This document shows positions 3,747 to 63,999 of a stretch of 64,000 bases of DNA, in pieces. Origin of the DNA: Schmidtea polychroa (lineage: Eukaryota). Under the pieces are notes generated by a model. It was not told where the DNA came from, searched no databases, and saw only the letters and a list, made by a program, of their open reading frames with translations. Positions within the stretch are counted from its first letter, which is position 1; each line of letters begins with the position of its first letter. The stretch spans positions 11,782,001 through 11,846,000 of the forward strand of contig CM097885.1 in the NCBI GenBank assembly GCA_044892525.1. The letters run 5' to 3'. Made by a program: the position numbers and the translations under genes.

Positions 3747-3822
3747 CTTTGTTTAAAAAATTACCCCCCTCCCCGGGGGTGACTCATATGTCTTTGTTCC
3801 CGACTCCACACAATACCCTACT

Positions 3823-28706: not shown

Positions 28707-28779
28707 GACCAAAATCGAAAATTGAACCCGGTACTCCCGGTGATAAAATTGAAGCCTATTCCCACTCCGCTATAATGGC
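28707..28779 (-). ncRNA. tRNA-like RNA polymerase III unit 2 (putative, degenerate)
   Basis: 73 nt: GCCATTA, A-box TAGCGGAGTGG, T-arm CCGGGTTCAATT, 3' TTTTGGTC, then a T7 run. Shares AGTGGGAATAG with unit 1. Confidence 0.55.
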
Positions 28780-28837
28780 TTACATAATATATTTAATTAA
28801 TCCTATTGTGTGTGTGTGTAAATTTTAATATATAAAA

Positions 28838-30130: not shown

Positions 30131-30147
30131 TATTTTAACATTTTAAA

Positions 30148-31557: not shown

Positions 31558-31568
31558 GTCGACAAGCC

Positions 31569-32360
31569 CTAAAACAAACTTTTCCATATTTCAGCTTCTT
31601 CTCTATCCAAATAAATATAATTATATTTTTCTTTCCAATGATTATCAACAAACATATCAAACATATTCTTATCAGGTTCAACATTTGAAAATAAATCATT
31701 ATAAATCATATTCTTATCACGGCGATCTAATTTAAAAAATATAAAACAATTGGAATTATTTCTTATTGAATTTTTATCTAAAGCATAATATGTTTGAGAT
31801 ATATAAATAACATTACAATTATTATGTCGACCTCGTGTAAAGTAACTCTTTTGAATCTCTTGATTTTTCATATTAACAACATCATCAAATATAACTAGAT
31901 TCTTTTTATCTTTAGGAAGTAAATCACAATGTAAAACATCTTCAGGTTTATTAGAGAATAAAACTTGAATTGCCTCCTGCCCTTCTTCACAAATATAATC
32001 ATTTTTATTACTAATATCTGATTCTAAAATCTTTTCCTTATACCAATCAACCATATCACAAGGTTGAAAAACTTCTTCAGGACACCTATGTTGATTTTTA
32101 AAAATATCAATTATTGCTTTTTTAGTTAATTTATTTTCAAATCCACATTTCAAAAGTTGTAATTCTGGTTGATTTATGGTTGTAGAATAAAAGATTAAAT
32201 TATTATAATCTAAAAAATCATCTTCAAGTAACATTCTCAAAACAAGTACATTCTTTCCACATCCAGAAGAACCAACAATTAATAATCTAAAATTATCAGG
32301 AAATACTTTATTATTAAATTTACTCTTATGTCTATTTAAAATTGGTTTCCAAATATCCAT
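31569..32360 (-). CDS. A32/FtsK-like genome-packaging ATPase
   Basis: Walker A GSSGCGKN, Walker B LVIFDD, TRGRH..NVIYISQ and IRNN. Start placed at the AAAATG at 32360. Confidence 0.92.
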   Translation of the reverse strand: MDIWKPILNRHKSKFNNKVFPDNFRLLIVGSSGCGKNVLVLRMLLEDDFLDYNNLIFYSTTINQPELQLLKCGFENKLTKKAIIDIFKNQHRCPEEVFQPCDMVDWYKEKILESDISNKNDYICEEGQEAIQVLFSNKPEDVLHCDLLPKDKKNLVIFDDVVNMKNQEIQKSYFTRGRHNNCNVIYISQTYYALDKNSIRNNSNCFIFFKLDRRDKNMIYNDLFSNVEPDKNMFDMFVDNHWKEKYNYIYLDREEAEIWKSLF

Positions 32361-32375
32361 TTTGTTTATTATAAA

Positions 32376-32954
32376 ATGACAACTGAAGAATCTTTGCAAG
32401 AATTAATAAATTCAAATAAAAATAAATCAGTAGTAATTGATGGTAAAAAATATTTTATTGGAAAACATGTAAAAGAACAAGTGAGAGCGAAGATCCACGA
32501 AGCTAAAGAAGGTGGCATTCTTCCATTAGCTGCTTTAATACCTGCAATCATTGCTGGTTTATCAGGTGCTGCTGGAATAGCTGGAGGAATTGCAACTACA
32601 GTTCAAAAAGCTAAAGAATCTCAAAAGACAGACCTAGAAAAAGAAAAACTACAAACTGAAATCGATTCAATGAAGAAGGTAGAGCAAGCTAAAGGGGGAG
32701 TGTCCGTTGGAAAGGGTTTCTATCTTAATCCATATGAGGGGAGTCGGCAAAAGTCTCAGGGCAAAGGTCTCTATCTTGATCCTTATAAAGGTAGAGGTTT
32801 AAATGATTTTTTAAAAAATCAAATTTCTACATCTGAATCTTTATCTTCAAAAGATAAAGAAGATTTTAAAAAAATATGTAAATCTTTAAAGAATGGATGC
32901 CTTTGTAAAACTAAAAATGGTAAAGGATTATACTTGAAGCCCTTCGAACTATGA
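32376..32954 (+). CDS. Core/membrane-active protein resembling adenovirus pX
   Basis: GGILPLAALIPAIIAGLSGAAGIAGG resembles adenovirus pX GGILPLLIPLIAAAIGA; three GKG[F/L]YL.P repeats follow. Confidence 0.75.
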   Translation: MTTEESLQELINSNKNKSVVIDGKKYFIGKHVKEQVRAKIHEAKEGGILPLAALIPAIIAGLSGAAGIAGGIATTVQKAKESQKTDLEKEKLQTEIDSMKKVEQAKGGVSVGKGFYLNPYEGSRQKSQGKGLYLDPYKGRGLNDFLKNQISTSESLSSKDKEDFKKICKSLKNGCLCKTKNGKGLYLKPFEL

Positions 32955-32976
32955 TACCATTTTTGATACCATTAAA

Positions 32977-33858
32977 ATGGTATATGAAGAAAGATTAGCA
33001 CTTTTAAAAAAATTACAATCAGAACAAGATAAATATAATAAAAAAGATACAACTCAACATGCTGAATCTATAATATTAAATGAGGTAATAACACAACAAC
33101 AGGGGCCAACAATTAAAGCTATAAAAGAGTTGGAAGATTTCAATGAGCAAGCAAAATTTAAAGAGTTAGAAGATAAAAAACAAAAAATAAAAGAACTAGA
33201 GTGGCAGGATAAAGAAAAAGAATCCAGTGAAAACCATCCTGAAAGAAATCAAAGAAAACGCAGAAGGATTTCTAATGTGGAAGAAGAAGAAATGTTTTTA
33301 AAAACAAAACCTCTTAAAGTTGATCCTAAAATTAGAGATGATTTACCTCCTTCAATTAGACCCACATTTAATACTAATACTGAAGGATATCAAATAATAA
33401 CAATTAATAAACAAAACTTTACTTTATATTCAAATTCAGAAAATAAATCACGTATTCATTCACAAAATGTTTATAATAATGAATATTTAGACTTTGAATT
33501 TACAGATGATTTTTATAGATTACTTTGTGGATATTCTTCAGATGATGTTGAAGAAATTAAAAAATATTTAAATTTAATAAGATTAATAAGAGCTAGTTCT
33601 AAAGCAAAATATATTCAAGATTTAAAGAATTATTTAAATAAAAATGAAAAGGGTTATGTTGTTACAGAGGGAGAGGGATTAATTAGTGAAGGTGGTAAAC
33701 CAAATCCCATCAATCTTTTTATTGAATTAAGAAAACTATTAGCTGCAAGGAAAGCAGGACATAATAATTTAGATTCTGATATTTTAAAGATTTCTAAAGA
33801 TTTGTTAAAACAAGGAATAATTTCAAAAGATAAATTTAATAAGTATACGAAGTTATAA
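32977..33858 (+). CDS. Conserved Polinton/adintovirus protein of unknown function
   Basis: 293 aa; C-terminal G.G...L..LLAA.KAG.N....I..I...L...GII motif that I recognise from Polinton structural gene blocks. Confidence 0.7.
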   Translation: MVYEERLALLKKLQSEQDKYNKKDTTQHAESIILNEVITQQQGPTIKAIKELEDFNEQAKFKELEDKKQKIKELEWQDKEKESSENHPERNQRKRRRISNVEEEEMFLKTKPLKVDPKIRDDLPPSIRPTFNTNTEGYQIITINKQNFTLYSNSENKSRIHSQNVYNNEYLDFEFTDDFYRLLCGYSSDDVEEIKKYLNLIRLIRASSKAKYIQDLKNYLNKNEKGYVVTEGEGLISEGGKPNPINLFIELRKLLAARKAGHNNLDSDILKISKDLLKQGIISKDKFNKYTKL

Positions 33859-33880
33859 ATACGAAGTTTTAAAATACAAA

Positions 33881-34345
33881 ATGACTCCTTCAATATTAGA
33901 TTTTTTAAAAACATTTGGAATAAATGCAAAAACAAATTTTGATTTAAAAGATTATGCAAATTATTTAAATTTAAAAATTAAAATATTAATGAATGATGAA
34001 TTATCAAGTCTGGAGAGTCCCCTGAATATAATAATCAATTATCAAAATTCAAATGAAAAAGGATCTCATTGGGTTTGTATATATAAGAAATCTATCTACT
34101 TTGATTCTTTTGGGATTAAACCTACTAAAGAAGTTGAAGATTATCTCTTGAGGGGTTCTCCGATTGATTCCCCAAATGGTTATACTTTTAACTCTTTACA
34201 AGTTCAACCTTTGAATACTAAAATATGTGGTATTTTAAGTTTATATGTTTTGTATAGATTGAATAAGGGAGAGGGAAAGGGGCATACGCAGGATTTTGAA
34301 TCTATAATTCAAGAAATTTATAATGATCTAGAATCTCTACTATAA
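33881..34345 (+). CDS. Adenain-like cysteine protease
   Basis: IIN...GSHWV, YFDSFG and VQ....ICG provide the His/Asp/Gln/Cys catalytic set. Confidence 0.92.
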   Translation: MTPSILDFLKTFGINAKTNFDLKDYANYLNLKIKILMNDELSSLESPLNIIINYQNSNEKGSHWVCIYKKSIYFDSFGIKPTKEVEDYLLRGSPIDSPNGYTFNSLQVQPLNTKICGILSLYVLYRLNKGEGKGHTQDFESIIQEIYNDLESLL

Positions 34346-34393
34346 GGATTTTTACTATAAGGATTTTTACTATATGAATTTACTACTAAAGAA

Positions 34394-35158
34394 ATGGAGC
34401 TTCACAACCCTCCGGAAGATAATTTTAAAAAAATGGTAAACATAATGTCAGATAAATATTCAAGAACTTTATCTATAAATTCAAAAGAATCAGAGTTTAC
34501 TATAAACTTTCAAGATTCAATTAAATTAGATCAAAATTTAAATTATGAATTGGGGCTATTATGGTTTTGTGCTTATAATACTATTTTTAATATAACTAAA
34601 GATAATAATAAATTTACTATTCAAACTCGTGATGGGCATAAACCAGAAATTATAACAATAGAACCTGGGGTATATGAGATAAAAGATTTAAATGATATAC
34701 TTTCTAAAAAAACAAATGAAGGTATTAAAATTAAAATGGATATACCAACTTCAAAATGTGTAATGACTTTGAAGAATATAAAAATTAGTTTTTTAGATAA
34801 TTGTTTCTTTCACACAGTTTTAGGATTTAAACCTATGGATATAACAATAAAAGAAGATAAAATAATAACATCAGAACATATTATAAAAATAATAAATACA
34901 AACACAATAAATATTCATTGCGATTGTATAACAGGTTCTTATAATAATGGTAAACAAACAAATGTTTTATATTCCTTTCCCTCAAACACAGTTCCTATGG
35001 GATATAAAATAGTTGAAAGAATGAATCCTCCAAATTATTTACCTTTATGTAGAAAATATATAATGGATATTAATTTTAAAATTCTTAATCAAGAAGGAGA
35101 ATTGATTGATTTTAATGGAGAAGAGATTTCAATGTATTTACATTTGAAACAGGTTTAA
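34394..35158 (+). CDS. Minor capsid protein (penton, single jelly-roll)
   Basis: YELGL, NTIFNI..NNKF, I.PG.YEI, INIHCD.I.GSY.NG, P.GYKI.E....P.Y.P and NQ.GELIDFNGE motifs. Confidence 0.88.
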   Translation: MELHNPPEDNFKKMVNIMSDKYSRTLSINSKESEFTINFQDSIKLDQNLNYELGLLWFCAYNTIFNITKDNNKFTIQTRDGHKPEIITIEPGVYEIKDLNDILSKKTNEGIKIKMDIPTSKCVMTLKNIKISFLDNCFFHTVLGFKPMDITIKEDKIITSEHIIKIINTNTINIHCDCITGSYNNGKQTNVLYSFPSNTVPMGYKIVERMNPPNYLPLCRKYIMDINFKILNQEGELIDFNGEEISMYLHLKQV

Positions 35159-35184
35159 CGAAGTCCATTTTAAATTATTAATAA

Positions 35185-36195
35185 ATGAGTTCTTATATTC
35201 CATGTAATAGAGGTGGTGGAACAATAAAAACAGGGTTTAATACAGAAGAAATATTAACTTTAACAGAAAATAAATATATTAATGAAAGAGGTGATTCAAT
35301 GAAGGGTGATTTAATTTTAAATGGACACAAAATAAAAGAATTATCTTTTCCAACTGATGAAGCTGATGCAGTTAATAAGAAATATGTAGATGGTGTTAAA
35401 AAATATACTGATTTAACAACAACAAGAATTGAAAGTTCATTAACAACAAAAATTGATTCAATGGAATCAAAGCTTAATAATATCGAACAACGATTTAATG
35501 ATAAATTTGACAAGTTACAAAGTCTGTTAACTGAACAAGTTGTAAAGTTAAATACTGCTATATTAAATTCTAAAGATAAACAAATTATGAATACTAAATT
35601 TAATACAATATATAAAATAATAAATGAGATGATTACATCATTTAATAAAAGAATTTCAAATTTAGAGTCTCATGGAACACACATTAACACCACACATAGT
35701 ATTAGAAAAAGAGCTGCTGAATTAGAACAGAATAAAACATTATTACCCCATACATATAAACATTTTATAGAACCAAGTTTAATAACAACAAACAGTAAAG
35801 AATGGGGTGTTTTTATGGTTGTAAAAATTATTGATCCTTATTTCTTTTTGTTTGATGATGATAATGAAAGAATGAAATGGTTTGTGAAATGTGATTATAA
35901 TAGTAAGCTTGAAAAGGGTGATGTTATAATGACTAGTTATGATTTACCACACGGAGATTGGTATGTTAATACTCATTCACATGGACTACATAAAGTTAAA
36001 AGTAAGAATATTCATTTTTCTAGTTCACTTGTACAATATATAGATTTAATATTTTATGAAAAAAAGGTTGATGTTGATGAAGTTCGTAAAGCATTGAGAG
36101 AATTGTATAAAGGTATCCTCTCAACAAGAGTTTCTTTTGATATCCGAGTATTGGTGCCAGATGGTGCTCAGAAGAATAAAGTCTTATTTTTTTAA
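35185..36195 (+). CDS. Putative fibre/spike-like protein
   Basis: GDSMKGDLILNGHKIKELSFPTDEADAVNKKYVD (trimeric fibre/adhesin neck-type repeat), then a long coiled coil and a globular C-terminus; lies directly after the penton gene. Confidence 0.6.
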   Translation: MSSYIPCNRGGGTIKTGFNTEEILTLTENKYINERGDSMKGDLILNGHKIKELSFPTDEADAVNKKYVDGVKKYTDLTTTRIESSLTTKIDSMESKLNNIEQRFNDKFDKLQSLLTEQVVKLNTAILNSKDKQIMNTKFNTIYKIINEMITSFNKRISNLESHGTHINTTHSIRKRAAELEQNKTLLPHTYKHFIEPSLITTNSKEWGVFMVVKIIDPYFFLFDDDNERMKWFVKCDYNSKLEKGDVIMTSYDLPHGDWYVNTHSHGLHKVKSKNIHFSSSLVQYIDLIFYEKKVDVDEVRKALRELYKGILSTRVSFDIRVLVPDGAQKNKVLFF

Positions 36196-36203
36196 TTATT
36201 AAA

Positions 36204-36815
36204 ATGGAAGAAGTAAGAGAAGAAAATATTTACCCAGAATTGAGATCATCAGGATATTATTCCGAAGGTCACAAAGGTTCCAAGGCCTCAGCTCCCACAG
36301 AACTTGAAATTATGAGAGTAAAAGAATTTAAATCAGAAACCTTACATTTAAAAGATTTATTAAAGCATTATAAAAAAATTAAAAATAGATGGAATAAAGG
36401 GAATACAGTTTTAAAAGTTATAGGTTATTCTTTAGGATTTGCATCTGCAATATTAACTGTTATTTTACCCATAACTTTACCAGTTGTTACTCTTGCACCT
36501 GTAATACTTGGAAGTATTTCTGTGGCTGATGGTTTCTTAACTGAAATAGTTTCATTATCTTATACTTCTAAAAAGAAAAGTTTATATAGAGAAGTTTGTT
36601 TATCAATAGAATTAGGAATCTCTAAATTATTTTTATTTCAATTAAAAGCTTTGGAAGATGGAATCCTGACAGACGAAGAAATAATGAAATCAAATCAAAT
36701 AATACAAGATATAAAGAATGAGGTTATAAGATTAAAAAGGGAGGGCATGGTGGCTAATGTTATAAGTAATAAAAAAACATCTCGAGAAAAATGGTTAAAG
36801 AATTCTTACTTATAA
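36204..36815 (+). CDS. Putative membrane protein with a hydrophobic hairpin
   Basis: IYPEL..SAP N-terminus, coiled coil, long hydrophobic segment and ALEDG.LTDEE motif. Confidence 0.7.
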   Translation: MEEVREENIYPELRSSGYYSEGHKGSKASAPTELEIMRVKEFKSETLHLKDLLKHYKKIKNRWNKGNTVLKVIGYSLGFASAILTVILPITLPVVTLAPVILGSISVADGFLTEIVSLSYTSKKKSLYREVCLSIELGISKLFLFQLKALEDGILTDEEIMKSNQIIQDIKNEVIRLKREGMVANVISNKKTSREKWLKNSYL

Positions 36816-36893
36816 AATGGGTGTATTTTTAAAAAAGTAGATCAGGTTGCTATAGTTGCTTAAATTAATTGTCGACATTTTATTATTAAAAAA

Positions 36894-37448
36894 TTAAATA
36901 TCGTTGAAAGCCAACCTATGAATCATTAATTTATGATCTTTAAATTCTTTATCACTTAGACCTTTTATATATTCAGGATCAGTATTAAAATATTTAAGTT
37001 CTAAACATATAGGATTAAAAACTTGAGAATATAAAGGTTTCTCGATTTCTCTCTGGGGATAAATAATTTCAACATTATAAATATCAAGATCAGTAATCTT
37101 TGTATCATATAACTTATTCAACTTTTCTAGATTTTTTATTATAGGGATTAAATTATTTCCAATAGGTAGAGTTGTCTTTAAATCACTTAGTATGAATCTC
37201 TTATCATCATAATTTGATAATGATACTTTTTGAGATTCTATCAAGTGAATATCATGGTTTTCACTTTTAAGTTGATGTATTTCATCAATTTTATCTTTAT
37301 GATTTGGGTTTAATGTATCTATATAATCTTGATGAGAAAGATTCTTTGCAACCACTCTCTGTATTCCTTTACATCTGTTATCCTTTAAATTAGTAATATT
37401 TTTTATAATTTCAAAAATGTTATTTTCTTGATTTTTAGTTTCCATCAT
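36894..37448 (-). CDS. Stand-alone paralogue of the pPolB C-terminal (thumb/tail) region
   Basis: Aligns by eye with the last ~165 aa of the adjacent PolB (KGIQ, NYDDKRFILSDLKTTLPIGN.LIPIIKNL, ELKYFNTDPEYI.GL). Has its own TATAAAATG start and stop. Confidence 0.8.
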   Translation of the reverse strand: MMETKNQENNIFEIIKNITNLKDNRCKGIQRVVAKNLSHQDYIDTLNPNHKDKIDEIHQLKSENHDIHLIESQKVSLSNYDDKRFILSDLKTTLPIGNNLIPIIKNLEKLNKLYDTKITDLDIYNVEIIYPQREIEKPLYSQVFNPICLELKYFNTDPEYIKGLSDKEFKDHKLMIHRLAFNDI

Positions 37449-37472
37449 TTTATAGTGTTAAAATTCTAATTC

Positions 37473-40400
37473 TTAGACCAGTCGTAATTGATTTATAATT
37501 ATTTCTGCGGTAATGCTTTTTAACATTAATTTATGTGATTTAAAGTCTTCTGGTGTTAGTCCTTGGATATATTCAGGATCAGTATTAAAATATTTAAGTT
37601 CTATAGGTTTTATATTTTGAACTTGATTATATAAAGGTTTAGGAATTAATATTTCAGGATATTGGATTTCTACTTTAGCAAGTTGAAGGTCTGTAATCTC
37701 TAGGTTATAAATTTCATTTATTTTATCAAGATTTTTTATTATAGGGATTAAATCATTTCCAATAGGTAATGTTGTCTTCAAGTCAGAAAGTATAAATCTT
37801 TTATCATCATAATTTGTTATAGCAATCTTGTTACACTCTTCAAGATATATATTATGTTTCTCTGATTTAAGATGATGGGTTTTAGCAATTTTATTTTTAT
37901 AATTTATATTTAATGAATCTTTATACTCTTGATGTGTGAAGGTTTTTGACACTGATTTTTGAATTCCTTTACTTTTATTTTCTTTATAGCTTTTCGGGTT
38001 TTCAGGGAATGAAGGATATTCAAATGTTCGATCTACTTCAACAGATCCTTCTATTATAAATTTTATTGTATGCTCTTTCATAATTGGTTTGTCTTTCATT
38101 TCAAGAGAATATTGTTTAGGTCTAATAAACACTCCTCCAGTTATTGGAGTATTTGGTTTTTCATCTTTAAAAGTAAACAACTCTCCAGAATTGTTTATTA
38201 ATTTATTTAAGGTTGGATCTTCACGTATTTCTTTTTTTAAATCTTTGCTATATCCTTTTAAAAACATACTATCAGTGTCCATTGCATGCATGGATATTCG
38301 ATCTCCAAAATGTGGTACTAGAACATCATAGTAGGCTTCATACATTTGAAGCTTTGAAAGTTCTAAAATTGAAAACCCTATAAAGATTGGTTTATTATAA
38401 GTTTTTACAGAGTTTTTAATCTCTATGGCTATAAGGTTACTAGAGAATATCTCGGCATTTTTAAATGTGGGCTTTCCAATTATCCGGTTGTACCTATTAA
38501 GGTCTTTGGATGTATTGGTCAAAAGCTCTACACGTGTGTACTTGTCTATATTCTCCATGGTCTTTCCAAAGACCGCATTGTTCAGGAGTTTGTAAATCAT
38601 ATCAAGAAATGCATTTCCAGCTCTCTTTGCTGCATTTCTTTTCAAAATATTTCCCTCTATGAATTTTTTCATAAAAGGGGCTTGTCGAAATTTAATAATG
38701 GAATGTACTTTTTTTAAAACCATTCCATGGGAGAGATAAAACTGAAAGAGTCTATAATGACAAAGGTAATCAGTTTTATCGGTCTGATCGCATAAAAGTT
38801 TTATACAGGGCGATCTATCCTGAGCCATCTGCCAGTCTGAAAGTTCTTCAGTCGAGATCTTTCTTCTTACTGGAGCAAATGGAAAGAATCTTGTCCTGGA
38901 TTTTATTTCATTGGGATATTCAAGATCGCATTCTATGACATATCCATATTGTGAATTCTTTGGTGTTTTTAGAATTTCTTGTATTAATTCCTCAGTGGGC
39001 TCTTCCCAGGTGAACTTGCCAATTGGAAGGTATTGAGTCATTACTCCTGCATATAAAGCTGTTGCATCTATATACATTATTTCAGAAGGATTAGAAAGAC
39101 CTTCCAGTATTTCCTCACGATCTTCTGGGTTTGTTATTTCTACATATAGAGCATCAGTATCTTTGAAAAATTTAGGATAAAGAGTTGTAAAATTATTAGC
39201 ATTTATTTCTCTATTCCCTTGTACTGAAGAAATACCTCCTCTAATATTATGTTTATATACATTAAACATATCAAGGTCAACTAATAATTCAATGGTTTTA
39301 TTTCTTTCTGCTATGTCTTCATCGGTCCATATGCTATATAATAATATATCCCAAGCTAGAGAGGGAGCGGTTATATAATTATAAGGTTTTAATTCAAAAG
39401 CTTTTGAAAATGTCTCGAAGCAATCAGCTAAGATATAAACATCTAAGGAAAGATACATGTCAGTATATTCTCCAAGGTTTCTACAGTTGAAAAGATTCCA
39501 CATTTTAAGTGCACGGGAATATTCCTGATCAGAAATCCCTGATTGTGTTAAAACAGAAAAGAAATCTTCTTGAGCTGGGAGTAATTCATTATATTTTTCA
39601 AAGGAGTCTATATAATCATATGGATAGATTCCTTTTGCTAGACAGGTATTATATTCCTCTAATGGAATATTGTTTTTTAATAACACATGTTCTTTTGTAT
39701 ATTTAAAATCCTCAGGGTTCATAGTTTTTGCAATGCCATCCAAAGACATCCCTAAGAAATTTAAGGAGTCCAAAAACTTAAAGCATCCATATTGAATGCT
39801 TTTATATTTTTCTTTTGTAAGTCCAATAACCTTGAAAGAGTTTTTAGCATTTGCAGCTAGATGTTTAATGAACAGGTGAATATCATAGCCAAAAAGATTG
39901 TGAAATATAAATGGTATGTGTGTTGGTTTTTTACAATTGAGATTACAATTTTTATGGGCCGCTCCTCTGTAATTATTTTCTATTTTAAAATGATCATGGT
40001 CAGGAACCTTTAGTTCACTAGTTGACTCCTCATCCTCAAACTCTTGTTTGCACATCCAGCAGTGTGTTGCATTTTTATATTCTTCCTCTTGTTCTTCTGA
40101 AAAATTCATAGGAAAGTTGGATTTTAATATATAATTCATGTTCTAGATTATTTAAAGTTTCAACAAAATGGTCTAGAGTCTCTTTGTCAGAAGTTCCCCT
40201 AAATGAATATTCTCTAGATTCTACAAGTTCTGGATAATTACTTTTGAAAAACATTTTATAAGCAGAGGGTAATTGTTTTGTTAGTTTTACAGTAGTAGTT
40301 TTTGTTCGTCTTAGTTTTACATTTATAGCTTCAAAATCACAATAAACCACTCCCAATGCTTCTAATAGATTGGAATAGTTTTTAAACCTCATATTAGCAT

Positions 40401-41609
40401 TTTTCTTGTGTGGCATTTTTATTAAAGCAGGTTGATTCTTACAACAGAGTCTCTCATGTTTAATAGCAGCAAGTTTTGAAGTTGAATGATATAAACATCT
40501 TTTACAACATATGCCTCCACGAATGAGTGTGTTTCCTTTCATAAAACTTTGAAAATTCTTTATTAAGATATAATGAAGTTTTTTATCTAACATAGTGCCT
40601 CCGGACGCAGTGCTTTCTGCTTCTGGTTCTAATGAAATGCCTTCTTCTGCTTCCATAACCTTCGGGTGAATACTTTGAACCTCTTCACCATATTCTTCTC
40701 CATCAAACTCTTCGTCTGCTTTACCTTCTTCTAATATTAAAAGATCTACTTCTCTCTTTTCATCTGAGATTTCCATATTAGAAATGTAAATAGGAATAAT
40801 TTGTTTATAATTTTTATTTTTTCTAGTTTTTGTAATTTTGGTTGGAATGAATTGATAAATATTAATTTTAAGATTATTTAATTTTTCAAATGCTGGAACA
40901 TCTTCAATTTTCATTGGGTGGGAAAAATCTTTTGGATATATTAATTCAGATTCATATTCTTCATATTTTTGAACTCTCTGTGGGTTAGTTGCTTGAGGAT
41001 GTAAGTGTGCAAGTATTGACCATTGAAAACATTTATTATCTTTATTCTGTACATTTATAACATGGTTGGAGGTGAATGGTGTATGAATAAAAGATTTAGG
41101 ATTTGGTGGTGCACCTCTCCAGTATTCAATCTCTATGTTTTGAAAAGAGTGGAATCTTAAATTAGATTCTCCTAGTTCTTGTTCCACCTGTTCTTGTTTT
41201 TCTTCCAATTCTTTAGCTATATCATTAACAAGTTTATTTCCTGCTTTTGTAGAAAATAAATATTTATATGAGGTTTCAATTTTTACATCTAGAGGCATTG
41301 CGATCGAATCATCTCCTCTCCAGTATTTTGCATTTCCTGTAAATTTAATTTTTATAACATTAAATCTTGATCTACCAAATTTTTTTATAGCATCATCCAT
41401 TGATGATATTATTTTTTTTTATTTTCTCTTATATATTGCATGATTGATCTGGGTCCTCGTTTTACTTCTGCAATTACATCGGTGTGATTGAAGTCATCCC
41501 AATTAAACTCTAGTTTTTCAGCTTTTTCAGTCATTGAGTTTGAATCAGAATCTTTTGCTTCAAGACCACAATCTTCTATGTGTCTTAAGTAAAAAGATTT
41601 TATCCTCAT
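37473..41609 (-). pseudogene. polB: Protein-primed DNA polymerase B split into three ORFs by two frameshifts
   Basis: ORFs 41409-41609, 40075-41400 (QNKDNKCFQW...HY, YCDFEA) and 37473-40139 (DHDH, FHNL.GYD, KGIYPY, YIDATALY, KLLNNAVFGK, MDTDS, DDKR). Confidence 0.9.
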
Positions 41610-41612
41610 CTT

Positions 41613-41708
41613 TGGGGTAAAAAAGCATATAAATGTGGAAAATATGGGTCAATAGCGCTGTTTTTTTTTGAGGGTGGGGGTGCTGGGGTGCATAGATTCC
41701 TCACTACT
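41613..41708 (-). repeat. Right terminal inverted repeat
   Basis: Ends ...GGGGTGCATAGATTCCTCACTACT. Confidence 0.95.
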
Positions 41709-49130: not shown

Positions 49131-50617
49131 AAGAACACTTCAAATACCTGATGTAACCATGAAACAGCGAGTTCCACTTCTTTTGTCGGGTACTGTATGT
49201 AGTGATTAACGGAATTAAAATTTAATTATTGAATTTAATTATTGGTGGAATCAAGTACCTAAGATATTTGTTTAAATAACAAATGTTTTGAATAATAATA
49301 AAAGTCTTACACGTTTTATTTGTTTTATTAATCATTACTTATCCGAATTAATCAGCATGTGCAGCAGAGCTTTTAGACATTCTTGGCAACAAAATATCGA
49401 AGGATCAATATTAGATGGATAGAAATACAAAAGTTCAATTGTAAGTGTATTTTTCATTATAGAAATTGTGTGCATCGTGCTTGTGTATATGAATCTATTT
49501 TTCTTACCTCAATAAACTTTTCTTTTCTATAATGTATGAAGATATTTTATGTCATAGGTCTTATTTAATGTCAATTTTGACAATTATAGACATTTATTAT
49601 AGGTGTTTTTTGATTTGTTATTAAAGGTCCTTTCAATAACGTTTTGATCTACAACTCACCAATGTGAGCATTCCTCGATGATAAAGCCCACCATAATATG
49701 CAACATGCAAGATAGAAATTTGTAATTTGAAGCCAGTATTATATTGGGCAGTTCCGATTTTATCAAATATTTAATCAAGCCTTTCTTTATTAACTAAGGA
49801 CATTTAACTGTTGCAAACGGTTGACATGGCTTTAACAGATAATCGCATTTTGTTAGAGTGGTGTAAAAGAAATTTGAATGTGTAAATCGATAAAATATTA
49901 AATATCAATTAAAAATTTGATAAGTAAAAATTGACATATTTCGATGAAGATAGATCTGTACGAATGACAATTAATGAGACGAATACAAATGTAATAATAT
50001 AAAATCAATGAACAGTTCCAAAAAAATATATTCAAAAAATACAAATTAATTAAAAATAAATAATTTAATAGCTTTGTGGGAAACCCGAACGCTAAATGAG
50101 AAAATAATGAGATTAGCTGTTTCTCCAAACTCAAAAGAGACTAATTTTTCTCAATATTAAATTAGCTGAATAGGATCTTTGGGCAGGAAGGAGAAAGGTC
50201 GCTGCACCAAAGGTAAATGCCACCCACATCCTGAAACAAACCTGAATTTTGTTTTGGACTACAAAGAAATCTACTCAACGAATTTCAAAGTTTTCCAACT
50301 CATTCGATTCGGAACAACCTCTTCTTGAAAGTGATTCCAATGATTTACTAGAGAGAAAAAACAATTCAATAAAAAACACAAACATTTAATTTTTATTCTT
50401 ACCAATCCCTCGACATCAAATATTTTCAACTCATTTCGTTTGCAATAACGCCTCTTACAAAGTGATCCCGATGATTTCTAGAAAAAAATTTCAATCAAAT
50501 TTATATATATTTTCTTTAAATTTCTGAATGTTGTTTGAAAAAAATACTTGTAACCAAATAACGTAATATAAGAATATTTTTTTCAAATTTCACCACTGAT
50601 TTCTTTTCCATTGACAT

Positions 50618-50757
50618 TGTATTTATTGAAAAGCTTGACTATGAATCAGTAAATATATCGATATTTTTGATATTCAAAAATTTCAATAAGAATATCAAAG
50701 AATATCAAAAACATCGATATATTTACTGATTCATAGTCAAGTTTTTAATAAATACAA
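50618..50757. repeat. Palindromic dispersed repeat (MITE-like), copy 2
   Basis: About 58-bp imperfect inverted arms cttgactatgaatcagtaaatatatcgat.../...atcgatatatttactgattcatagtcaag. Confidence 0.7.
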
Positions 50758-53572: not shown

Positions 53573-55815
53573 TAAATTAACGAAAAAATTCAAAATTTGA
53601 TTAAATTTTTGCATCTATAAAAATAATTATATAGAAAAAACTGTCGCAACAAATGATTTAAAAACGAAAAAAACTTCAATTCCAATGACAGTCAGATTTT
53701 TATTCTGAAAATTTGTGAAGTTGAGAAAAAAATTTCCATAGTAAATATTTGTTTGAATTCTCAATAAAAACTCATTCTATATAATAATGAAAATTAAAAA
53801 TCCGAGTTCTGTAAATTAAAAAAAAATTTCTTTTACAATTTTTGTCTTATTTAAAACAACACAAATACTTTTTTATCGATTTTTTAATGACAGGAAAAAG
53901 TTAAACTTTTAAATATTAAAGATAAATTCATTCTGAAAAAAATGTTAAATTATTTTTATTCCATTCTATTTAAACAGATTTTTGAGCATTGTTTCAACGG
54001 AGAAACTAAATTAAACAGCTGCAATTGAATTTTATTTACAATTTAAATAAATATTTTAATTTTATTACCAAAATAAAATATTAAGATTTTTCTGCAAATT
54101 TTTTTCGGTTTCAATTTATTGATTAAAATGTGAAAAATTCAATTTTGAATTACTTGAACCTGATAAAATTTAATTAATTTTTTTTGTAGAAGTTATCAAA
54201 GTCAAGTGAAATAATCAATAAATTTTATTGATTGATGTGATCGTGCTGGAATTGATCGATTGGCAAAGTGATCTTGTTGATCTGTAAAAATTGCCTTAAG
54301 ATATAATAAAATCTATTCATATCACATATTCAAACTCACATAAATTAACAAATACAAATATTAAATAACATTGTTATTTTGTAGAAAAATTAAAATTCAA
54401 AGTAGAAATAATAATTGGATTTTCAATAAATAAATAAAATTTTTGTTGACTTTTTATTTTTTTTATTTTTAATTCAGTTCTTAATTCTATATTTTGTCTA
54501 AAATATTTATAATTTATTTTTATTATTAATTTTCAATTTAGTGTTGGTCATTATAATATTTGATAAGATTTAATTTTTAATTATTGACCATGGAAATATT
54601 AATTTATAAATGATTGAAAAAAAACATACTATGAAAATATTTAATTTCAGTCATTTTTAGGAGTCTGCGTTCAAACCCCCGGTATGCATTACATAATCAT
54701 AATAATCACATACATCATTGCATAATCATCGGTTTTTACACCAAAGGTCAATTAAAGATGGCTAAATGGACATTGATTTAAAGATTAATAATATAAATAA
54801 AACATCTATAATAAATGCCTGTGTGTCATAGGCAAAAAGTGATATTTAATTAAATCTACACCTAATTCCGAAATTTAATAACTTCTATAATCTAAAAAAA
54901 ATCAATAAATATATATTATAGGAACACACAAACTTACCTGTGTGTAGAAATTTATTGTTCCGAAATTTAGTAACTTTATTATAGGTTTTGTGAAGGTGAG
55001 AGAAAAATAACTGAACACACCAACACAAAACACATAATGAAAAATGTATGCAAAATTCTTATATAGGTTTTTGTTCCGAAATAAATAACTGTTAACATAT
55101 TGTTAAAATATAATTATTTTAAAATTATTAAAAAATGCAAGAAAATACTTTTAATTTAGATTCCGACAGCTCTACTTTGAGCTTTAGAGAAAAAGAAGAA
55201 AATACAATGTAAGTTTTATTCATTAAATTACAAAATATTAAAATATTTTATAATATATGTGAAGGCAGCATTTCAAATATTGAAGGTCTTTACAGAAAGA
55301 AAAAAGCCATCGAAAATGAGCTGCAGAAAGAATATTATAAAAATTAAAAAAACTATTTCATTCATGTACGCCAATTTTTTCCTAAATGTCTTAAAAAAAT
55401 AAATGTGTTTGGTGATTACTTTATTTATAAATATAAAAATATCTAACTTACATTTTAACGAAATAATTCCATATTAGTGCATAAAATATCATAAATTTCC
55501 TAAAAAACACCTGAAATTTAATTATTAATATATTTATAAATGATAAATTATAAATGCTGAATAACAGTAATATTTAAGAACTTGAATAATGATCTCATAA
55601 TTATATAAAATCAAAATTCAAGTCTTAAAAGTTACTTGAAATTAAAAAAATTACCTGAAAACCATTTTTAATAAATTGAATAAATTAATAAATAAATTGA
55701 ATAAAAATTGAATAAATAAATTTTTAATAAATTGAAATTTAATAACTTCATTTTCACGTAAATGGTGACTCACCTCAACTGGTGTGCACACCAACGTGAA
55801 TTATAGAGGTTATTA

Positions 55816-55912
55816 AATTTCGGAATTGGGTGTATGACATGAAATAATGGCTTACACTATAGAGTCTATAGTGTAAGCCATTATTTCATGTCATACACCC
55901 AATTCCGAAATT
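55816..55912. repeat. Perfect palindrome with 48-bp arms and a 1-nt spacer
   Basis: 55816-55863 is the exact reverse complement of 55865-55912. Confidence 0.9.
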
Positions 55913-58900
55913 AATAGTATAGACAGTTAGAAAAATTCAATGTTGGAAGAAAAATGAATAACTGCACACAAGCACGGTTCAAAAATTCTATATAAAAAAT
56001 TACACACAATAATACATTAATCAAACTCCTGGATATTTAATAAACTCCAAATTTTTAATTTTAAAACGATGCTAAAACATTTTGCAATTATTTTTGTTTT
56101 CCTATATGACCTTAATATGTGTCCTTGTTTCAAGTAAGGTGTTTATTTTTTCTATTTATAAATTAATTATGTCTTATATTTATGGTTAAACGTATCATTA
56201 TTTATGCGCTTTGGTTGTGTTTGAAATAGTTGTGTTTGAAATTTATTTTTCTTCTTTTCTATAGTATATGCACATAATTTATGCCGGCCAGCTTTAATTT
56301 TTGTCTTTATTTCAAGTAGGTGTTTTTTTTTAAAACCTGAATTTGACTTTATTTATAACTGTCAATTTATTAATGCAAGTTTAAGTAATACTATAAAAAC
56401 ATATATAATACTATATAATACTATAATACAAATTATTTCTACAATAAAAATGTTATCATCGAAAATGCGATACTTTAAAACAGTAAAAATTAAATCCATT
56501 TATTTAATTTCTATAGTAAAATGCATTTCTTTGAAAAATAGAAATTTCCTAAAAAATAAAATCTTCACATTGACTTTTATGACATTGAGCATCAAATTTC
56601 AATTCATTTAAACAAACTAATCAAAAAATTTGAGTTTCTTGTTTAACCTGTAAATTTTACCTAAATATTAATTTTACAAATAATTTTTTAGATTCTAAAA
56701 TTAAATGGGAATTTTTTTATTGAAATTATCAGAAAAAAAACTTTAAAGTGGCAGACATTAACAAAAAATGTTACTTCAATTCTTGTCATAAATAAAAGAA
56801 ATATTTAAATCTATTAAAATAATAAATAAATATATTTTTTTCTCTCTATAAAATAACAAAAGACTTTTGAAAATAATTAGGAATGATATTTATTGTTTGA
56901 TTTAACAGAAATGACATTAAACATAATTTGTTTGTCTTAATCGGATACGCTGTCTATGAAAGACGGATAAGGATGAAATTTAACTGAGATTTCTGTGACT
57001 GATGAAATGTATTTGCATGAGATTGTTTGAAATGTTTTTTTTACCACATTTACTAATAATTAATGACATTTTTAATAAACATTTCTCACTCACTAGATGA
57101 TCTTAATAGAAAAGAAATACACAATGAGTTTATGAGCCAAAATCTTTGAATTAATTACCGAAATCATTTAATTATTGTGAAAAAAATGAAAATTAATAAA
57201 ATAATAAAATTGATAAATTTAAAATTTTAAAATTTTTTATTAGTTTTTATTAATAAAAATTTAATTAAATATTTAAAAAAAAATTTTCATCTTAATTAAA
57301 CATTATTACAAATTTTATTTAGTGTTACATATAAAACTTTTTTTACATATAATAACTTTTGAGGATTTTATACTTTATAAGTTAACTATTTTCTTGCTAT
57401 ATTCCATATATGACATTGCAAAGTTTACTTTAAGCATAAGTCTAATTTATTCTCATGTTAAATTGAAGTTAGTCTCAATAAGTGACCTGAGAACTTCAAG
57501 ATCTATGTCAAAATACCTTCCAACTAGTTACTTAAGATGGTAACTCAACTAACTTCTCTTGAAAGGTTTCATTGGTAACTGCATTCACTAAAGAAAAAAT
57601 AATTTTTGACATTACAAACCCCTCCAAAAAGTTCATTTAGACAAATTGGAGCAAAGTAGTTCACAAGTAAAGAAATCAATCACTTAACGTAAGGATTTCT
57701 TGTGAATTTGTGATGAAACAATGATCAAAATTTTAACAGTCAATAATTTTTTACTACATATCATTTGAACTACCCTAAGCCATGATTTATAACTCATAAA
57801 CAAGCATGTATAATTTGGGAAGGAAATATAAAAGTCGCCCATTTCTCAATTGAACATGCTCAAAATTGACAGCATGAAGCTTTCGTGCTGGAAACGAGCA
57901 CATACGTTAAGTGGTTCAAATTAATGAGTTCAAACAAAATCAGTGAAACAAAACATGAAGTACTTTTTTCTTAAAAGTAAAAACACATTCATATTTAATT
58001 ATCATTCGAAAAGTCCTCCATGAAGACTCTACTGCTAGCTGCTTTTATTTCTTTTACATATTTTTTAGCTAATGTATTTATCTTTCTTTCATTCAGACCT
58101 GCTTATTTCAAGATTTTATCATTTATATCCTGCAAAAATATTGATATTTCAAGCAGTTCTATTTCCTATACAAAAACAGCATTTAAGTTTAACTAACTAC
58201 CCTTAATTAGAGCATGTCGTGACGTGAATAAATCAATGAGTTAAAAGTTTATTTATACAATTTGTATGAGATGTAATTGAATTAGAAATTGTATGTTGAA
58301 TTGTATTTGACTTTGGATTGATTTCGATGATCGATCCGTATTGTGTAATTGTTTCGAAATTTGGAATTATCTTCTTTCTTCTCGTAATTTTTCGTATCGA
58401 CATGTTTTCTAGCTTATTCTTTATATTTAAACAAATATTTGCTTTTTTATTATAATAAATTTTACATAATTTAATAATTAATATAAAATTAACTCTTTCG
58501 AAAATTATGTAAAACAAACTCATTGGAGTGAAATGCAAAAGTTACTAGTATAAAAATTCAATTAAAAAATTAAAAAAAGTTTTTCATATAATATTATTGT
58601 TGAAAATTTCAATTCAATTTCGCTAGGACAGTCACCGCTTCTGACTCGTCATTTCCTTATTGAAATAAATAAAATCCAACAAATCTAAAGATTTATTTCC
58701 ATCAAATACTGGCACAATATATTTATAATTTCAGTTGATGACAGGAAATAAATTTGATTCAATTGAATTAAATTCTCACAAAACTTATTAATTATTAATT
58801 AAATTTGAAACCTTAACCTTTCTTACAAATCTTACTGACACATTTAAAAAGCTCCTATTAAAATTTCGACTGAAATAGCAATTTCTGATCTAAATAAATT

Positions 58901-58940
58901 AGTTTATACTCAGGGCACTCAATAAATTTTGCCATTCAAT

Positions 58941-59373
58941 CAGGGCTGTAACAAGGGTGGTGTGAGCAGTGCAGTCGCACAGGACACACATCTGAAAGGG
59001 ACGCAAAATTGGGATGTAACTTTTTTTAATGTTACCAAAAAATAACAAAATATAAATAAAAGAAATGGGCTACACGAAAAAACGACACACTAACTAGCCT
59101 ATCTTTAACATTGCTGATTGGACTGGTCCATTAGCGTGCCTTCGTAGGTGTGTATTTTGAAAAAGGTTAGTCCACAAAATGGGCTCCTGTCATTTTTTCA
59201 ATTAGCAAATTTTAAGAGCATTACTACCTATTATAATAGCTGGAGATGTATAAATAGTTCACAATTTCAACATATATATTATAATTATTATAGTAGGCTG
59301 TTTTGAATTCGGGTTTTAGGGGCGCCAAATATATGAACCGCACAGGGCGCAATAATGCCTTGTTTCGGCCCTG
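58941..59373. mobile_element. hAT-type MITE
   Basis: TIRs CAGGGC[T/C]G[T/A]AACAAGG and exact 8-bp TSD CATTCAAT. Confidence 0.85.
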
Positions 59374-59589
59374 CATTCAATTTGACTTATACTATTAATT
59401 TAACACGCCGTTGGCGGCGCAGTTCTCACTCTATCGGTATCTTTGATGCCGCCTTTTGGTATGGGACATTAGTAGATGGATTGGGCACCGCTGGCACAGG
59501 GCACCGCTAGCACAGTACCCCCCCCCGTCGTCATATTTTTCAAAAATATGCTAAGTCTAAAAGTACAAATTTTTTTAAACAAAGACATA

Positions 59590-60195
59590 TGACTCATCAA
59601 GGTCATTGAAACAAAGACCATGACTCATAGTATGACTCATCAAAATTCTCAAGGTCATTTAAACAAAGACCATGACTCATCCTATGACTCGTCAAGGTCA
59701 TTTTCAAGGTCGTATGACTCATAATATGACTCATCAAGGTCAAAAAATTTTTTTCAAGGTCATTTAAACGAAGACCATGGCTCATCAAGGTCATTTTCAA
59801 GGTCAAATGAGTCATACTATGACTCATATGACCTTGAAAATTTTTTTCAAGGTCACCTGACTCATCCTGTGACTCATCAAGGTCATTTTCAAGGTCATAT
59901 GCGTCATAGTATGAGGCATATGCCCTTGAAAAAATTTTCTCAAGGTCAAATGACTCATACTATGACTCATATGACCTTGAAAAAAATTTCTCAAGGTCAT
60001 ATGACTCATACTATGACTCATCGACATTTTTTCAAGGTCATATGACTCATACCATGACTCATCAAAAATTTTCAAGGTCATTTTCAAGGTCATCTGAGTC
60101 ATCCTATGACTCATCAAGGTCATTTTCAAGGTCGCATGACTCATCCAAGGTCATTCCAAGGTCATATGAGTCATCGCGATGACTCATCAAGGTCA
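59590..60195. promoter_or_regulatory. Dense array of TGA[C/G]TCA (AP-1-like) and YCAAGGTCA (NR5A/ERR-like) motifs
   Basis: About 20 of each motif by hand count in about 600 bp; function is inferred. Confidence 0.6.
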
Positions 60196-60354
60196 TATTA
60201 TTATTTTTAAAAATATTATTATTTTTATTATTATTTTTAAAAATATTATTATTTTATTTTTAATTTTTTCAAAGTTCCCGCCAACGAAAATTAATAATCG
60301 ATAGCTCATTTTAAAGCTCAATCCAAGACCTTTCGAATGAGCTATATATCTTGT

Positions 60355-60598: not shown

Positions 60599-61232
60599 CT
60601 AAATATATATAGTATGATATTCATTAATCAGTGTTGAACAGGCTTGACACTTGCGAACATTCTTCTCATGACACTTAGAACAAACAATTACGTGACCACA
60701 CGGTAAATACAAAACCGAAACTCGATTTTCTTTACAAATTGAACAAGTTAAATATCTTTTCTTAACATCTTTCAATTTTTTCGTTAACTTATTTTCAATC
60801 AAATCGGCTTTCGCTATCCATTCATAAATCAATCTACTATATCCAGGTTTCAACCTTAAAAACATACAACTCCAAAAGTATTCATTCAGTGAATCGTTGT
60901 TTACTGCTATTTTTTCTAAGTACATTAAATAACAAGATAACTTTAAAATGGATTTCTCATAATTAAATAAATCAAACAAATATTCAATAGAGGAATGTTT
61001 GAAAATTTTTAAAATATTTATGAGTTGCTTATCACTGTAAGTATCATGATTATTTATAAAATCTTCAAGTGTATTGTTAAAAAATGTCAATGAAATTTCA
61101 GAATAGGCTGGACTTAATTTTTCCTTATTTCTAGTAGGACTTCCTTGCTATAAATGACATATAAAAAAATTGCCAAAATAATAAAGTTACCAAATGTGTT
61201 ACACATTCATCGGTTTTATTTGTATAAATCAT
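60599..61232 (-). CDS. IAP-type C3HC4 RING finger protein without BIR domain, probably 2 exons (about 196 aa)
   Basis: C-terminal CSICKE..VSVLYLPCGHVIVCSKC....RKCQAC...I. Exons 61232-61191 and 61147-60599 join in frame across a 43-nt GT-AG intron. Confidence 0.75.
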
Positions 61233-61532: not shown

Positions 61533-61690
61533 ATATAGCTGCATGCTCACTGCAGACTATATATAAAAATATAGCTGCATGCCCACTGCAGACTATATAT
61601 AAAAAATATAGCTGCATGCCCACTGCAGACTATATATAAAAAACATATAGCTGCATGCTCACTGCAGACTATATATATAAAAAACATATA
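61533..61690. repeat. Four tandem ~37-bp imperfect palindromes
   Basis: ATATAGCTGCA-TGC[T/C]CAC-TGCAGACTATAT repeated 4 times with A-rich spacers. Confidence 0.9.
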
Positions 61691-61917: not shown

Positions 61918-63999
61918 CTATTGATCTTCGTCCCATTCGCTGTCGTCAAAACTGGGACTTGGAGCTGCACTGAATTCCTCATCATATTCGCTTAATTCGT
62001 CAACTCCTAAATAATGCCCAAATGCGTAACTTAAGTTTTTTCCTAGCCACGCGCGCTTATCATCATTATTACTTAGGGCAATTTTCGAATTTTTAAAAGT
62101 AAAAAGTTGGTGATTTCTAGTACCTATTCTAGTCTGCGGTACAGAAATCACCTGATTTGAATTATAGCAATTTAGATATGTTTCATGATTTATTGATGTC
62201 CGAGATAATTTAACCCCCTTCGCTTTTACCGTTTCCTTACTACCTAAAAGACTATAACATTTAGGGCGTAAGAAAACCCATTCAGAATACCCTAATCCCT
62301 TGCTCTCATCTTTAAACTTCCCGATGACCGAGTCAAGGTTCCTACTATACAAGGGGTGGGTTGGATCGTAATTTGACGTATCCAATAAATTATCTGAGAT
62401 CATTTGAGGTAATAGAGTTGTTAATTTTAAATTTTTAATTTCTAAAAAGAAACTGTCGGTATCACCGGCAATAATATTAATTATATATTTATATTGGCGT
62501 CTGTACTTCTCCAAATCAATATATTGGAGCTGGTACATCCGCAGTTTAGACAGATCTAGTACTGTTTGACCAATGTAGCTAGGTCTGTCTAAACAAATCA
62601 CATCTTTTTCCAAATGTGCCGCAATCAGATCGTTATCGATTCTTATGGACTTTCTGAAAGTCGGCTTTGAGGAGTATACTATCATCTTTTCGGATGAATT
62701 ACACAACCTCAAATTCATTCTTTTTTTCAAATTTTCAACCGATTTACCGTAAAGAGAGTTATTATACAATTTAAACAAGTCCCTATATATCTCGCTAGTA
62801 GACTGAGATCGTAAAGTGGTGTTGGTGTCTATGTAGGATTTAAAGATAGGTCCTTGTTTAAACTTTATACACCTATGAATATTTACAACAACCGCACCTA
62901 ATTCTATATACAATTTGAGAAGCCTCCAATGAAGAACATAGTTCCTCTTTGGCCAATGCGTAAGCATAAGCTTCTCAACTTTTGAATTAGGTGGGCACAA
63001 CTTTTCCGGCGCAAGCGGAAAATCATTCAAAAAGTCATGCACACATTCCGGAATATCGATATCGACCTCCATAGTATACCCATATGGAAGGTTATCAATA
63101 TCCGTGTTCATACATTCAAGTAAAACATCATTCAAGTTATTATTCACCCAAGAAAAATCACCATACGGAAGATTTTGGCTAAGAGCCCAACCATACAGAT
63201 TATTTATATCAATGTACAATAATTCTGTATCATCTGAAGTAGCCGTGTAATGTTTGTTAACAAATGTTAACCCACCCCGGATACCTCCCTCATAGAAATT
63301 ATACATTTCCATGTCCTGCAGAAGTTCTATTGGTTCCGTTAATGTCATAAGCGCTGAGGCCCATGACATACCGGGAATCCCGTAGAAATTAAGAGGATCC
63401 AGACCATTGTAAGCAATTGCCTTACCGCGGAATTGCTGAAAATAATCTGCGAGGAGGTATACGTCCAATTTTAGGTAGATTAACATATAATCTAACAAAT
63501 TATTACAGTTATGCTGACTCCAAATTAGTTGAGCCTCAGCGTACTGATCTTCCGTAACATCAGACCAAATAGGAGGTAATTCTAAAGTCGATTCAAGAAC
63601 ATCTAAAGAAGTAGCGAAATTATATGGAAAGATACCTTTAGAGTGAATCATCGACCCTTGAAAGACAGACGAAGTCAAAGGAAAAGTAGTTAAGGTTTTC
63701 ACAGCTTTTGCTAAAGAACAATTAACAAATTGCATGCTGTCAATAAAACGAACAGGCAATTTGTTAATATATGCAATTAAAGATATAAATTTTTCTGTAG
63801 AGGTAGGTATAATATTAAGTTCCCAAAGGGGAAAATCACTGAGACCATGTTTTAAAATATGGTGGAGGTCATAGCCTCGTAAATTATGAAAGACAACAGG
63901 TAACAATTTATTAATCCTGCGAGAGACATTGCATTTCCTACATGCCGCTCCGACATATCTACCTGTAAAATGACAATGATCTCTCACAGGATTAATAAT
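61918..63999 (-). CDS. polB: Protein-primed family B DNA polymerase (Polinton type), 5' part outside window
   Basis: RDHCHFTG, FHNLRGYD, KGIFPY, YIDINNLYG, KLYNNSLYGK, AGDTDSF and DDKR. The frame stays open to the window edge. Confidence 0.95.
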   Translation of the reverse strand: MINPVRDHCHFTGRYVGAACRKCNVSRRINKLLPVVFHNLRGYDLHHILKHGLSDFPLWELNIIPTSTEKFISLIAYINKLPVRFIDSMQFVNCSLAKAVKTLTTFPLTSSVFQGSMIHSKGIFPYNFATSLDVLESTLELPPIWSDVTEDQYAEAQLIWSQHNCNNLLDYMLIYLKLDVYLLADYFQQFRGKAIAYNGLDPLNFYGIPGMSWASALMTLTEPIELLQDMEMYNFYEGGIRGGLTFVNKHYTATSDDTELLYIDINNLYGWALSQNLPYGDFSWVNNNLNDVLLECMNTDIDNLPYGYTMEVDIDIPECVHDFLNDFPLAPEKLCPPNSKVEKLMLTHWPKRNYVLHWRLLKLYIELGAVVVNIHRCIKFKQGPIFKSYIDTNTTLRSQSTSEIYRDLFKLYNNSLYGKSVENLKKRMNLRLCNSSEKMIVYSSKPTFRKSIRIDNDLIAAHLEKDVICLDRPSYIGQTVLDLSKLRMYQLQYIDLEKYRRQYKYIINIIAGDTDSFFLEIKNLKLTTLLPQMISDNLLDTSNYDPTHPLYSRNLDSVIGKFKDESKGLGYSEWVFLRPKCYSLLGSKETVKAKGVKLSRTSINHETYLNCYNSNQVISVPQTRIGTRNHQLFTFKNSKIALSNNDDKRAWLGKNLSYAFGHYLGVDELSEYDEEFSAAPSPSFDDSEWDEDQ

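Follow-up and report, generated by a model that had tools for sequence, protein, structure and literature searches.

An array of AP-1 and NR5-type words inside the inferred end of a probable Polinton of Schmidtea polychroa: a candidate host-factor enhancer

Element B, its genes and its inferred terminus

The DNA analyzed here, referred to as the window, is a 64,000-nucleotide stretch of the Schmidtea polychroa genome (GCA_044892525.1, contig CM097885.1, positions 11,782,001 to 11,846,000); all coordinates are those of the window. A prohibitin exon in it is 94% identical to that of Schmidtea mediterranea and 92% to that of Dugesia japonica, which marks the host as a triclad. We infer the outer terminus of element B at an AGTAG (59471-59475, plus strand), rather than reading it outright, since the sequence AGTAGA fits five of the six bases of the (AGT)2 motif and the other end of B lies beyond base 64000, the target duplication likewise being outside the window. 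(AGT)2 is reported as the commonest Maverick end motif (PMC8097293). The layout of this end (AGTAG, 15–45 nt, a C-rich run, an A/T run) is common to B, element C (at 27281 and 41708) and an element at 8328-9928, the latter two having perfect AGTAGT ends. Two copies of a 16-bp terminal word with a GGGCACCGCT core follow at 59483-59514 (plus strand), with relatives at 2552 and 2792 inside the end of the sister element A (5 mismatches each). Just outside the B end, at 58939-59374, lies a MITE whose ends read CAGGGC...GGCCCTG, accompanied by a duplication of 8 bp (CATTCAAT); we take it to be hAT-like.

Two genes of B are visible, both on the minus strand. The 3′ part of a gene for protein-primed DNA polymerase B (pPolB; 61918-63999) runs off the window and is 64% identical in protein and 66% in DNA to the pPolB of A (159-2312, plus strand; PF03175, E 4e-29). 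The B protein itself gave no Pfam match at E 0.001; its best database relatives are 63% identical and most of them carry PF03175, and its close relatives span 52–63%. The second gene encodes a C3HC4 RING finger (60599-60925, 108 aa from the ATG; Pfam PF13920, E 5.7e-10) and has no counterpart in the matching stretch of element A. Its frame (60599-61150) is open upstream as far as a pyrimidine-rich AG, a likely splice acceptor, and the gene is probably spliced. Between the two genes, four 37-bp repeats with a TATATAAA stretch (61533-61683) form a possible, putative promoter. The array described below sits 3′ of both genes, 404 bp from the RING stop codon and 1,723 bp from the pPolB stop.

From the relatives of its visible pPolB and the layout of its inferred end, element B is probably a Polinton/Maverick-type element, in agreement with the first-pass annotation of this DNA, made by eye from the letters, which had placed the array at the end of such an element. 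Integrase, packaging ATPase and capsid families were found within the window in element C only, and none of 8 proteins of the window compared with the cluster collection was present there.

Composition of the array and its candidate binders

Motif counting in 59590-60195 gave 21 TGA[CG]TCA (AP-1) and 21 YCAAGGTCA (19 on the plus strand, 2 on the minus strand), which bears out the earlier estimate of about 20 of each in about 600 bp. In 2,000 dinucleotide-preserving shuffles of the same stretch, the AP-1 site averaged 0.29 with a maximum of 3, and YCAAGGTCA 0.05 with a maximum of 1. The 39 AP-1 sites of the whole 64-kb window comprise these 21, 13 in the end of element A and 5 elsewhere; for YCAAGGTCA the 24 sites divide into 21, 1 and 2.

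A parse allowing mismatches moved the start of the array from 59590 to 59577 and resolved 59577-60195 into a mosaic of three words. There are 25 AP-1-type 9-mers (intact TGASTCA in 21), 24 NR5-type 9-mers (YCAAGGTCA in 21 and YCAAGGYCR in 23) and four copies of AAACAAAGA (three perfect, one with a mismatch), a word absent from the first-pass annotation that we take to be Sox/TCF-like. Words cover 461 of the 606 bases (76%) of 59590-60195. The receptor words had been described as lying in both orientations; both do occur, but lopsidedly, with 21 of 24 pointing inward and 3 outward, and the AP-1 word is palindromic. Likewise, the fused form of the two words exists, but "often fused" overstates it: the fused offset is found at 7/25 AP-1-type words, and in 4 of those 7 as the exact 17-mer. 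Among the joins, AP1-AP1 at 12 bp and NR-AP1 at 10 bp are the most frequent, with 10 cases each.

The words are arranged in five overlapping tandem periods (52, 93, 51, 41 and 30 bp; 79–91% identity), with 17 junction types, inverted modules and nested inverted repeats. The periods, junction types and inverted modules rule out a simple tandem satellite, as had been claimed. Three palindromic modules of ∼41 bp have the order NR>-AP1-AP1-<NR (59797-59837, 59889-59929 and 59940-59980; span 59797-59980). The innermost unit (60167-60195, plus strand) is a 13-bp AP-1 pair fused to an NR5 word.

A 106-aa minus-strand ORF over the array (59824-60144) was discarded as a gene, being merely translated repeat words. 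An Rfam search of 59400-60194 returned 16 matches at E ≤ 0.1, all under the gathering score and 15 of them to generic miRNA-hairpin models, so that no known structured RNA family could be assigned. Among 21 sequencing runs listed, 6 (from two studies; top share 0.82) contained at least half of the words of 57000-60350; these shares do not show the array itself, since it makes up ∼18% of that stretch. No RNA run was listed as containing it, which tells neither for nor against its transcription.

The array words are exact matches to the AP-1/TRE and FTZ-F1/NR5 consensus sequences, TGACTCA being reported as the TRE (PMC13513840) and YCAAGGYCR as the FTZ-F1 consensus (PMC7239656). AAGGTCA is preceded by C in 21/21 cases in array B vs. 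3/13 elsewhere in the window. In the EMSA table for Schistosoma mansoni FTZ-F1 (PMC8673669, supplement S4), 11 of 37 probes were bound; by our count from the table these include 8/8 CAAGGTCA probes and 0/4 G/T-AAGGTCA probes, and the 3 other bound probes carry AAGGTTA. The same study places an FTZ-F1 site at meg-8.3 within repeated sequence, and links FTZ-F1 to the oesophageal gland (PMC8673669). The germline or reproductive role proposed earlier for the receptor words finds no support in the literature consulted. ERR, the other receptor named at that stage beside SF-1/FTZ-F1, is reported to be absent from S. mediterranea and from every parasitic flatworm analyzed, and present in Macrostomum (PMC8363021; PMC11637366). 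S. mediterranea is reported to have one FTZ-F1 (NR5A) and one HR39 (NR5B) (PMC8363021; corrected table in PMC11637366), and an NR5A2 database entry exists for Dugesia japonica. Given the S. mediterranea repertoire, the best candidate binder of the receptor words is an NR5 protein, FTZ-F1 or HR39; ERR is unlikely for S. polychroa. In planarians, jun and fos are wound-induced. AP-1 motifs are reported to gain accessibility after injury in Hydra (PMC8049744). A planarian ATAC study describes motif presence alone as a poor predictor of regulation (PMC10558129).

The sister element A and other element ends

Inside the inferred terminus of element A (3822-3825) lies a sister array (3558-3799, minus strand) of one fused NR5 word, 14 AP-1-type units (12 intact), one outer AP-1 and two Sox/TCF-like words. 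The fused motif occurs once (at 3558, reverse) and AP-1 sites number 13, so the observation that A amplified only the AP-1 part was correct. The units of A are spaced at a 13-bp period, against AP-1 pairs at 12 bp within the mosaic of B. Both elements have the order pPolB end, CCCTATGGG block, (TAA)n, 122-bp block, array. The outer seed is 93% identical between A and B over 29 bp; the inner seed, which is the innermost unit of array B, is 96% identical over 47 bp to A 3586-3540 and is likely the seed common to both arrays. With shared seeds and different fillings, arrays A and B must have expanded separately at the same place. The 122-bp block (B 60226-60345, A 3436-3557) is non-coding and 95% identical, vs. 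66% for the pPolB DNA, which suggests that terminal modules have been exchanged, or that the block is strongly constrained. The A end also contains internal duplications of blocks shared with B (2564-2867/2852-3154, 90%; 3132-3276/3344-3490, 78%) and a short AAAGGTCA repeat at 2509-2539.

The element at 8328-9928 is gene-less, with AGTAGTAG ends, inverted arms 81% identical over about 400 bp and flanks of ATATTA/ATATCA. It carries five copies of a TCACCTCCA word and 9 WAWNTAGGTCA, each oriented inward from the end in which it lies; 1,000 shuffles averaged 0.13 of the latter and never gave more than 2. WAWNTAGGTCA is presumably a ROR/Rev-erb type of site. These receptors are reported missing in flatworms, but when DNA-binding domains are compared the NR1b group falls next to them (PMC8363021).

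Polinton C (27281-41708) encodes a capsid protein (PF21738), an integrase fused to a phospholipase A2-like domain (PF00665, PF08398), an ATPase and a pPolB over two ORFs. It has a 96-bp TIR and no matching 6-bp duplication in its flanks; near 27495-27518 the end recurs in inverted form. This element, complete in the window, has no AP-1/receptor array. It carries a 460-bp internal duplication (36924-37385/37524-37985). Elsewhere in the window, two near-perfect intergenic palindromes of 107 and 142 bp lie at 55811-55916 and 50617-50757.

Searches of viral contigs gave no match to the fused 17-mer, and 15 distant pPolB loci there (26–35% identity) had no array, with 0–4 AP-1 and 0–2 YCAAGG[T]CA sites each. 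AP-1 pairs were found at 12 loci, none with an NR word; 4 of the 12, from one giant-virus bin, encode Met-Thr-His N-termini. Pairs of TCAAGGTCA occurred in at least 122 viral stretches. The 80 examined are mostly Gly-Gln coding repeats (69 in open frames of 100 aa or more), and none has 4 or more AP-1 sites. In metagenome contigs the composite NR-AP1-AP1 pattern was matched once at each of 7 loci, none of which aligns to the array. An AP-1 cluster was present in one of them only (L007): two ∼450-bp inverted repeats (4849-5291 and 10009-10491), 85% identical, hold 17 of the contig's 19 TGASTCA sites, packed as pairs. This contig has no homology to the window, and its terminal repeats would have acquired AP-1-type arrays by convergence. 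A further short, AT-rich contig (L008) has clustered CRE, AP-1, E-box and AGGTCA words at 530-870 and is likewise not homologous to the window.

A proposed terminal host-factor enhancer and its alternatives

The array is a real and unusually clean feature for which enhancer function is plausible. We give a probability of about 55% to the reading that it is a terminal host-factor enhancer of a planarian Polinton/Maverick, working like a baculovirus hr. The anatomy is read directly from the DNA, and from it we infer each functional step as follows. The array would have grown by slippage and template switching between words, giving direct and inverted modules, a process that the self-complementary AP-1 word and the single-stranded intermediates of protein-primed strand-displacement replication would favor. 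Host Jun/Fos-type bZIP dimers and monomers of planarian FTZ-F1 (NR5A) or HR39 (NR5B) would then bind many times, perhaps with a Sox/TCF factor. Bound factors may open the element end and raise transcription of the element genes, either the nearest ones (RING and pPolB) or, should the array be part of a terminal inverted repeat, those at the far end. The injury/MAPK input would come through AP-1 and the cell-type input through NR5, and the array would be retained since its many AP-1 and NR5 sites turn on element genes in certain cells or upon injury.

This reading is favored by an enrichment far beyond the shuffles, the Polinton-type end position and the uniform FTZ-F1-consensus word. Two further points in its favor are that element A multiplied this AP-1 core separately, with a different period and spacer and with variation mostly at the flanks, and that an unrelated AGTAG-ended element has 9 inward WAWNTAGGTCA words. 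It is weakened by the per-event tests given below (p = 0.099 in B, 0.20 in A), by the symmetric destruction of two AP-1 sites, by the lack of an array in the complete Polinton C and by the position of the array 3′ of both visible genes. Planarian Polintons are reported to be desilenced during differentiation, repressed by SMEDWI-2 and major PIWI targets (PMC8532177). Such desilencing fits a host-driven element and shows nothing on this array itself.

The strongest competitor, which we hold to be markedly less probable than the enhancer reading, is neutral expansion: a seed ATGASTCAT next to TCAAGGTCA would have been amplified by slippage and hairpin template switching into a functionless complex minisatellite, whole words persisting as the microhomologies where switching occurs. 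The tandem periods and nested inverted repeats described above are of this kind, and element ends here further contain extended (TAA)n tracts together with a tandem repeat of 37 bp. Like word runs arise in coding repeats of unrelated viruses, as the TCAAGGTCA pairs and Met-Thr-His repeats illustrate. On the other side, both words equal top consensus 9-mers of known factor families, which argues against neutral expansion, as does the expansion of one core at one place in both A and B. Moreover, a different receptor-type word is arrayed and polarized in an unrelated end.

The pattern of changes bears on both readings. The first-pass annotation had stated that cores are kept while spacers vary. 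Per base this is so: 12/416 core bases differ in array B vs. 7/30 AP1-AP1 spacer bases (5/30 after allowing for inversion), but the copies are related by duplication and not independent. Counted per event, it does not reach significance. Distinct changes in the 10 AP-1 pairs of B number 3 in 12 core columns vs. 3 in 3 spacer columns (p = 0.099), and the same test in A gave p = 0.20. A first module test of spacer vs. core (p = 0.01) was discarded, because it double-counted the three palindromic modules and included one half-homologous row. The AP-1 pairs are self-complementary, so that inversion leaves their cores unchanged, which weakens the contrast of core and spacer. In the middle module (59889-59929), two symmetric changes in the pair at 59899 destroy both AP-1 sites and retain the palindrome, a palindrome-keeping change of the kind expected from neutral expansion. 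Variation in array A lies mostly at the R/Y flanks (pi 0.52 vs. 0.05 in the core), and R and Y are complementary in 10/14 units. The symmetric changes in B and the complementary flanks in A fit hairpin-templated change rather than selection for binding. The non-palindromic receptor word is as uniform as the palindromic one (5/216 bases differ) and is inward-polarized, which neutral expansion does not readily account for. Its uniformity hints at selection; it is also compatible with recent expansion of one seed, since copies related by duplication can be uniform, including the C before AAGGTCA, for that reason.

It is improbable, in our estimation, that the array is chiefly an auxiliary replication origin, in which host factors near the terminus would help to load or stimulate the protein-primed polymerase, transcription being secondary. 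NFI and Oct-1 stimulate protein-primed replication at the adenovirus ITR, and auxiliary origin sites known so far are few in number, none much more than 50 bp from the end. The first word of B lies 107 bp from its end and the outer AP-1 of A 37 bp from its own, which would suit an origin; the 53 words of B, however, reach to 725 bp, and element C has none. Baculovirus hrs are reported to be origins as well as enhancers (PMC13513840), and the Polinton end motif to serve protein-primed initiation (PMC8097293).

We likewise consider it doubtful that the words serve a DNA-binding protein encoded by the element (the integrase or another), or act as a hairpin structure in the displaced strand, with the host likeness incidental. 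In DNA transposons, transposases commonly bind subterminal repeats, and the families of ends in the window each repeat a word of their own; yet the word content of A and B differs sharply despite 64% identical polymerases, and the rest of the B genes lie outside the window, leaving no nameable candidate binder. The array strand folds at −113 vs. −54 kcal/mol in shuffles (z −9.7, 20 shuffles), but we rejected this score as independent evidence, since repeated palindromes fold strongly automatically.

The enhancer reading finds its closest parallel in baculovirus hrs, which are reported to be AT-rich arrays, 390–880 bp long, in which imperfect palindromes carry clusters of host bZIP (CRE/TRE) sites; they act as enhancers and origins, with enhancer strength correlating with palindrome and CRE/TRE number (PMC13513840). 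Array B is 620 bp long, rich in palindromes and TREs, with 21 intact TREs and 10 pairs at 12 bp. In contrast, hrs are dispersed in a circular genome, have regular ∼72-bp units with a 30-bp EcoRI palindrome, carry mostly CREs and involve the viral IE1. Array B is subterminal in a linear integrating element, irregular and TRE-only, with NR5 and Sox/TCF-like words in addition. An irregular mosaic with palindromes centered on a 3-nt spacer in a Polinton context is not an hr, and the comparison concerns the proposed function only.

With Polinton/Maverick TIRs, element B shares a nearby pPolB and, at its inferred end, five of six bases of the AGT-type end motif. The distance of the array falls within the reported TIR range of 46–1,447 bp (PMC8097293), the second B end being outside the window. 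TIR-derived repeats of C. elegans Polintons are noted in passing to hold putative transcription factor sites (bioRxiv 2024.01.15.575659). The literature searched, which took in neither Repbase nor most subscription papers, yielded no dense AP-1/nuclear-receptor array in Polinton ends; Repbase descriptions of planarian Polintons and the supplements of that preprint may mention such repeats. FTZ-F1 and AP-1 response elements are single sites in the host promoters studied, against more than 20 of each in 600 bp here. The adenovirus ITR auxiliary origin and the enhancer repeats of polyomavirus, cytomegalovirus and LTRs place host transcription factor sites near an end or origin, and such viral enhancer repeats are often multiplied by tandem duplication and differ between sister strains. 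These systems have far fewer sites, and other factors act at the adenovirus origin.

We tentatively suggest, as a broader and speculative extension from the ends compared here, that planarian Polinton families may carry exchangeable terminal "address" modules of host transcription factor sites. Reshuffled by replication and swapped between sisters, these would set the cell type and stimulus (wounding, fission) of waking. Module types would be AP-1 alone, AP-1 with NR5 and Sox/TCF, and an NR1-type half-site array, and B would be injury-inducible and NR5-gated. The literature searched offered no cis element for planarian Polintons. Array B names two candidate host inputs in a standard regeneration model, and A vs. 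B provides a natural comparison of AP-1 only with AP-1 plus NR5. Viral enhancers built of multiplied host sites are a known principle; what would be new is that one takes this form and sits at the end of a Polinton. A family with many copies would also spread dense wound-responsive sites across the host genome.
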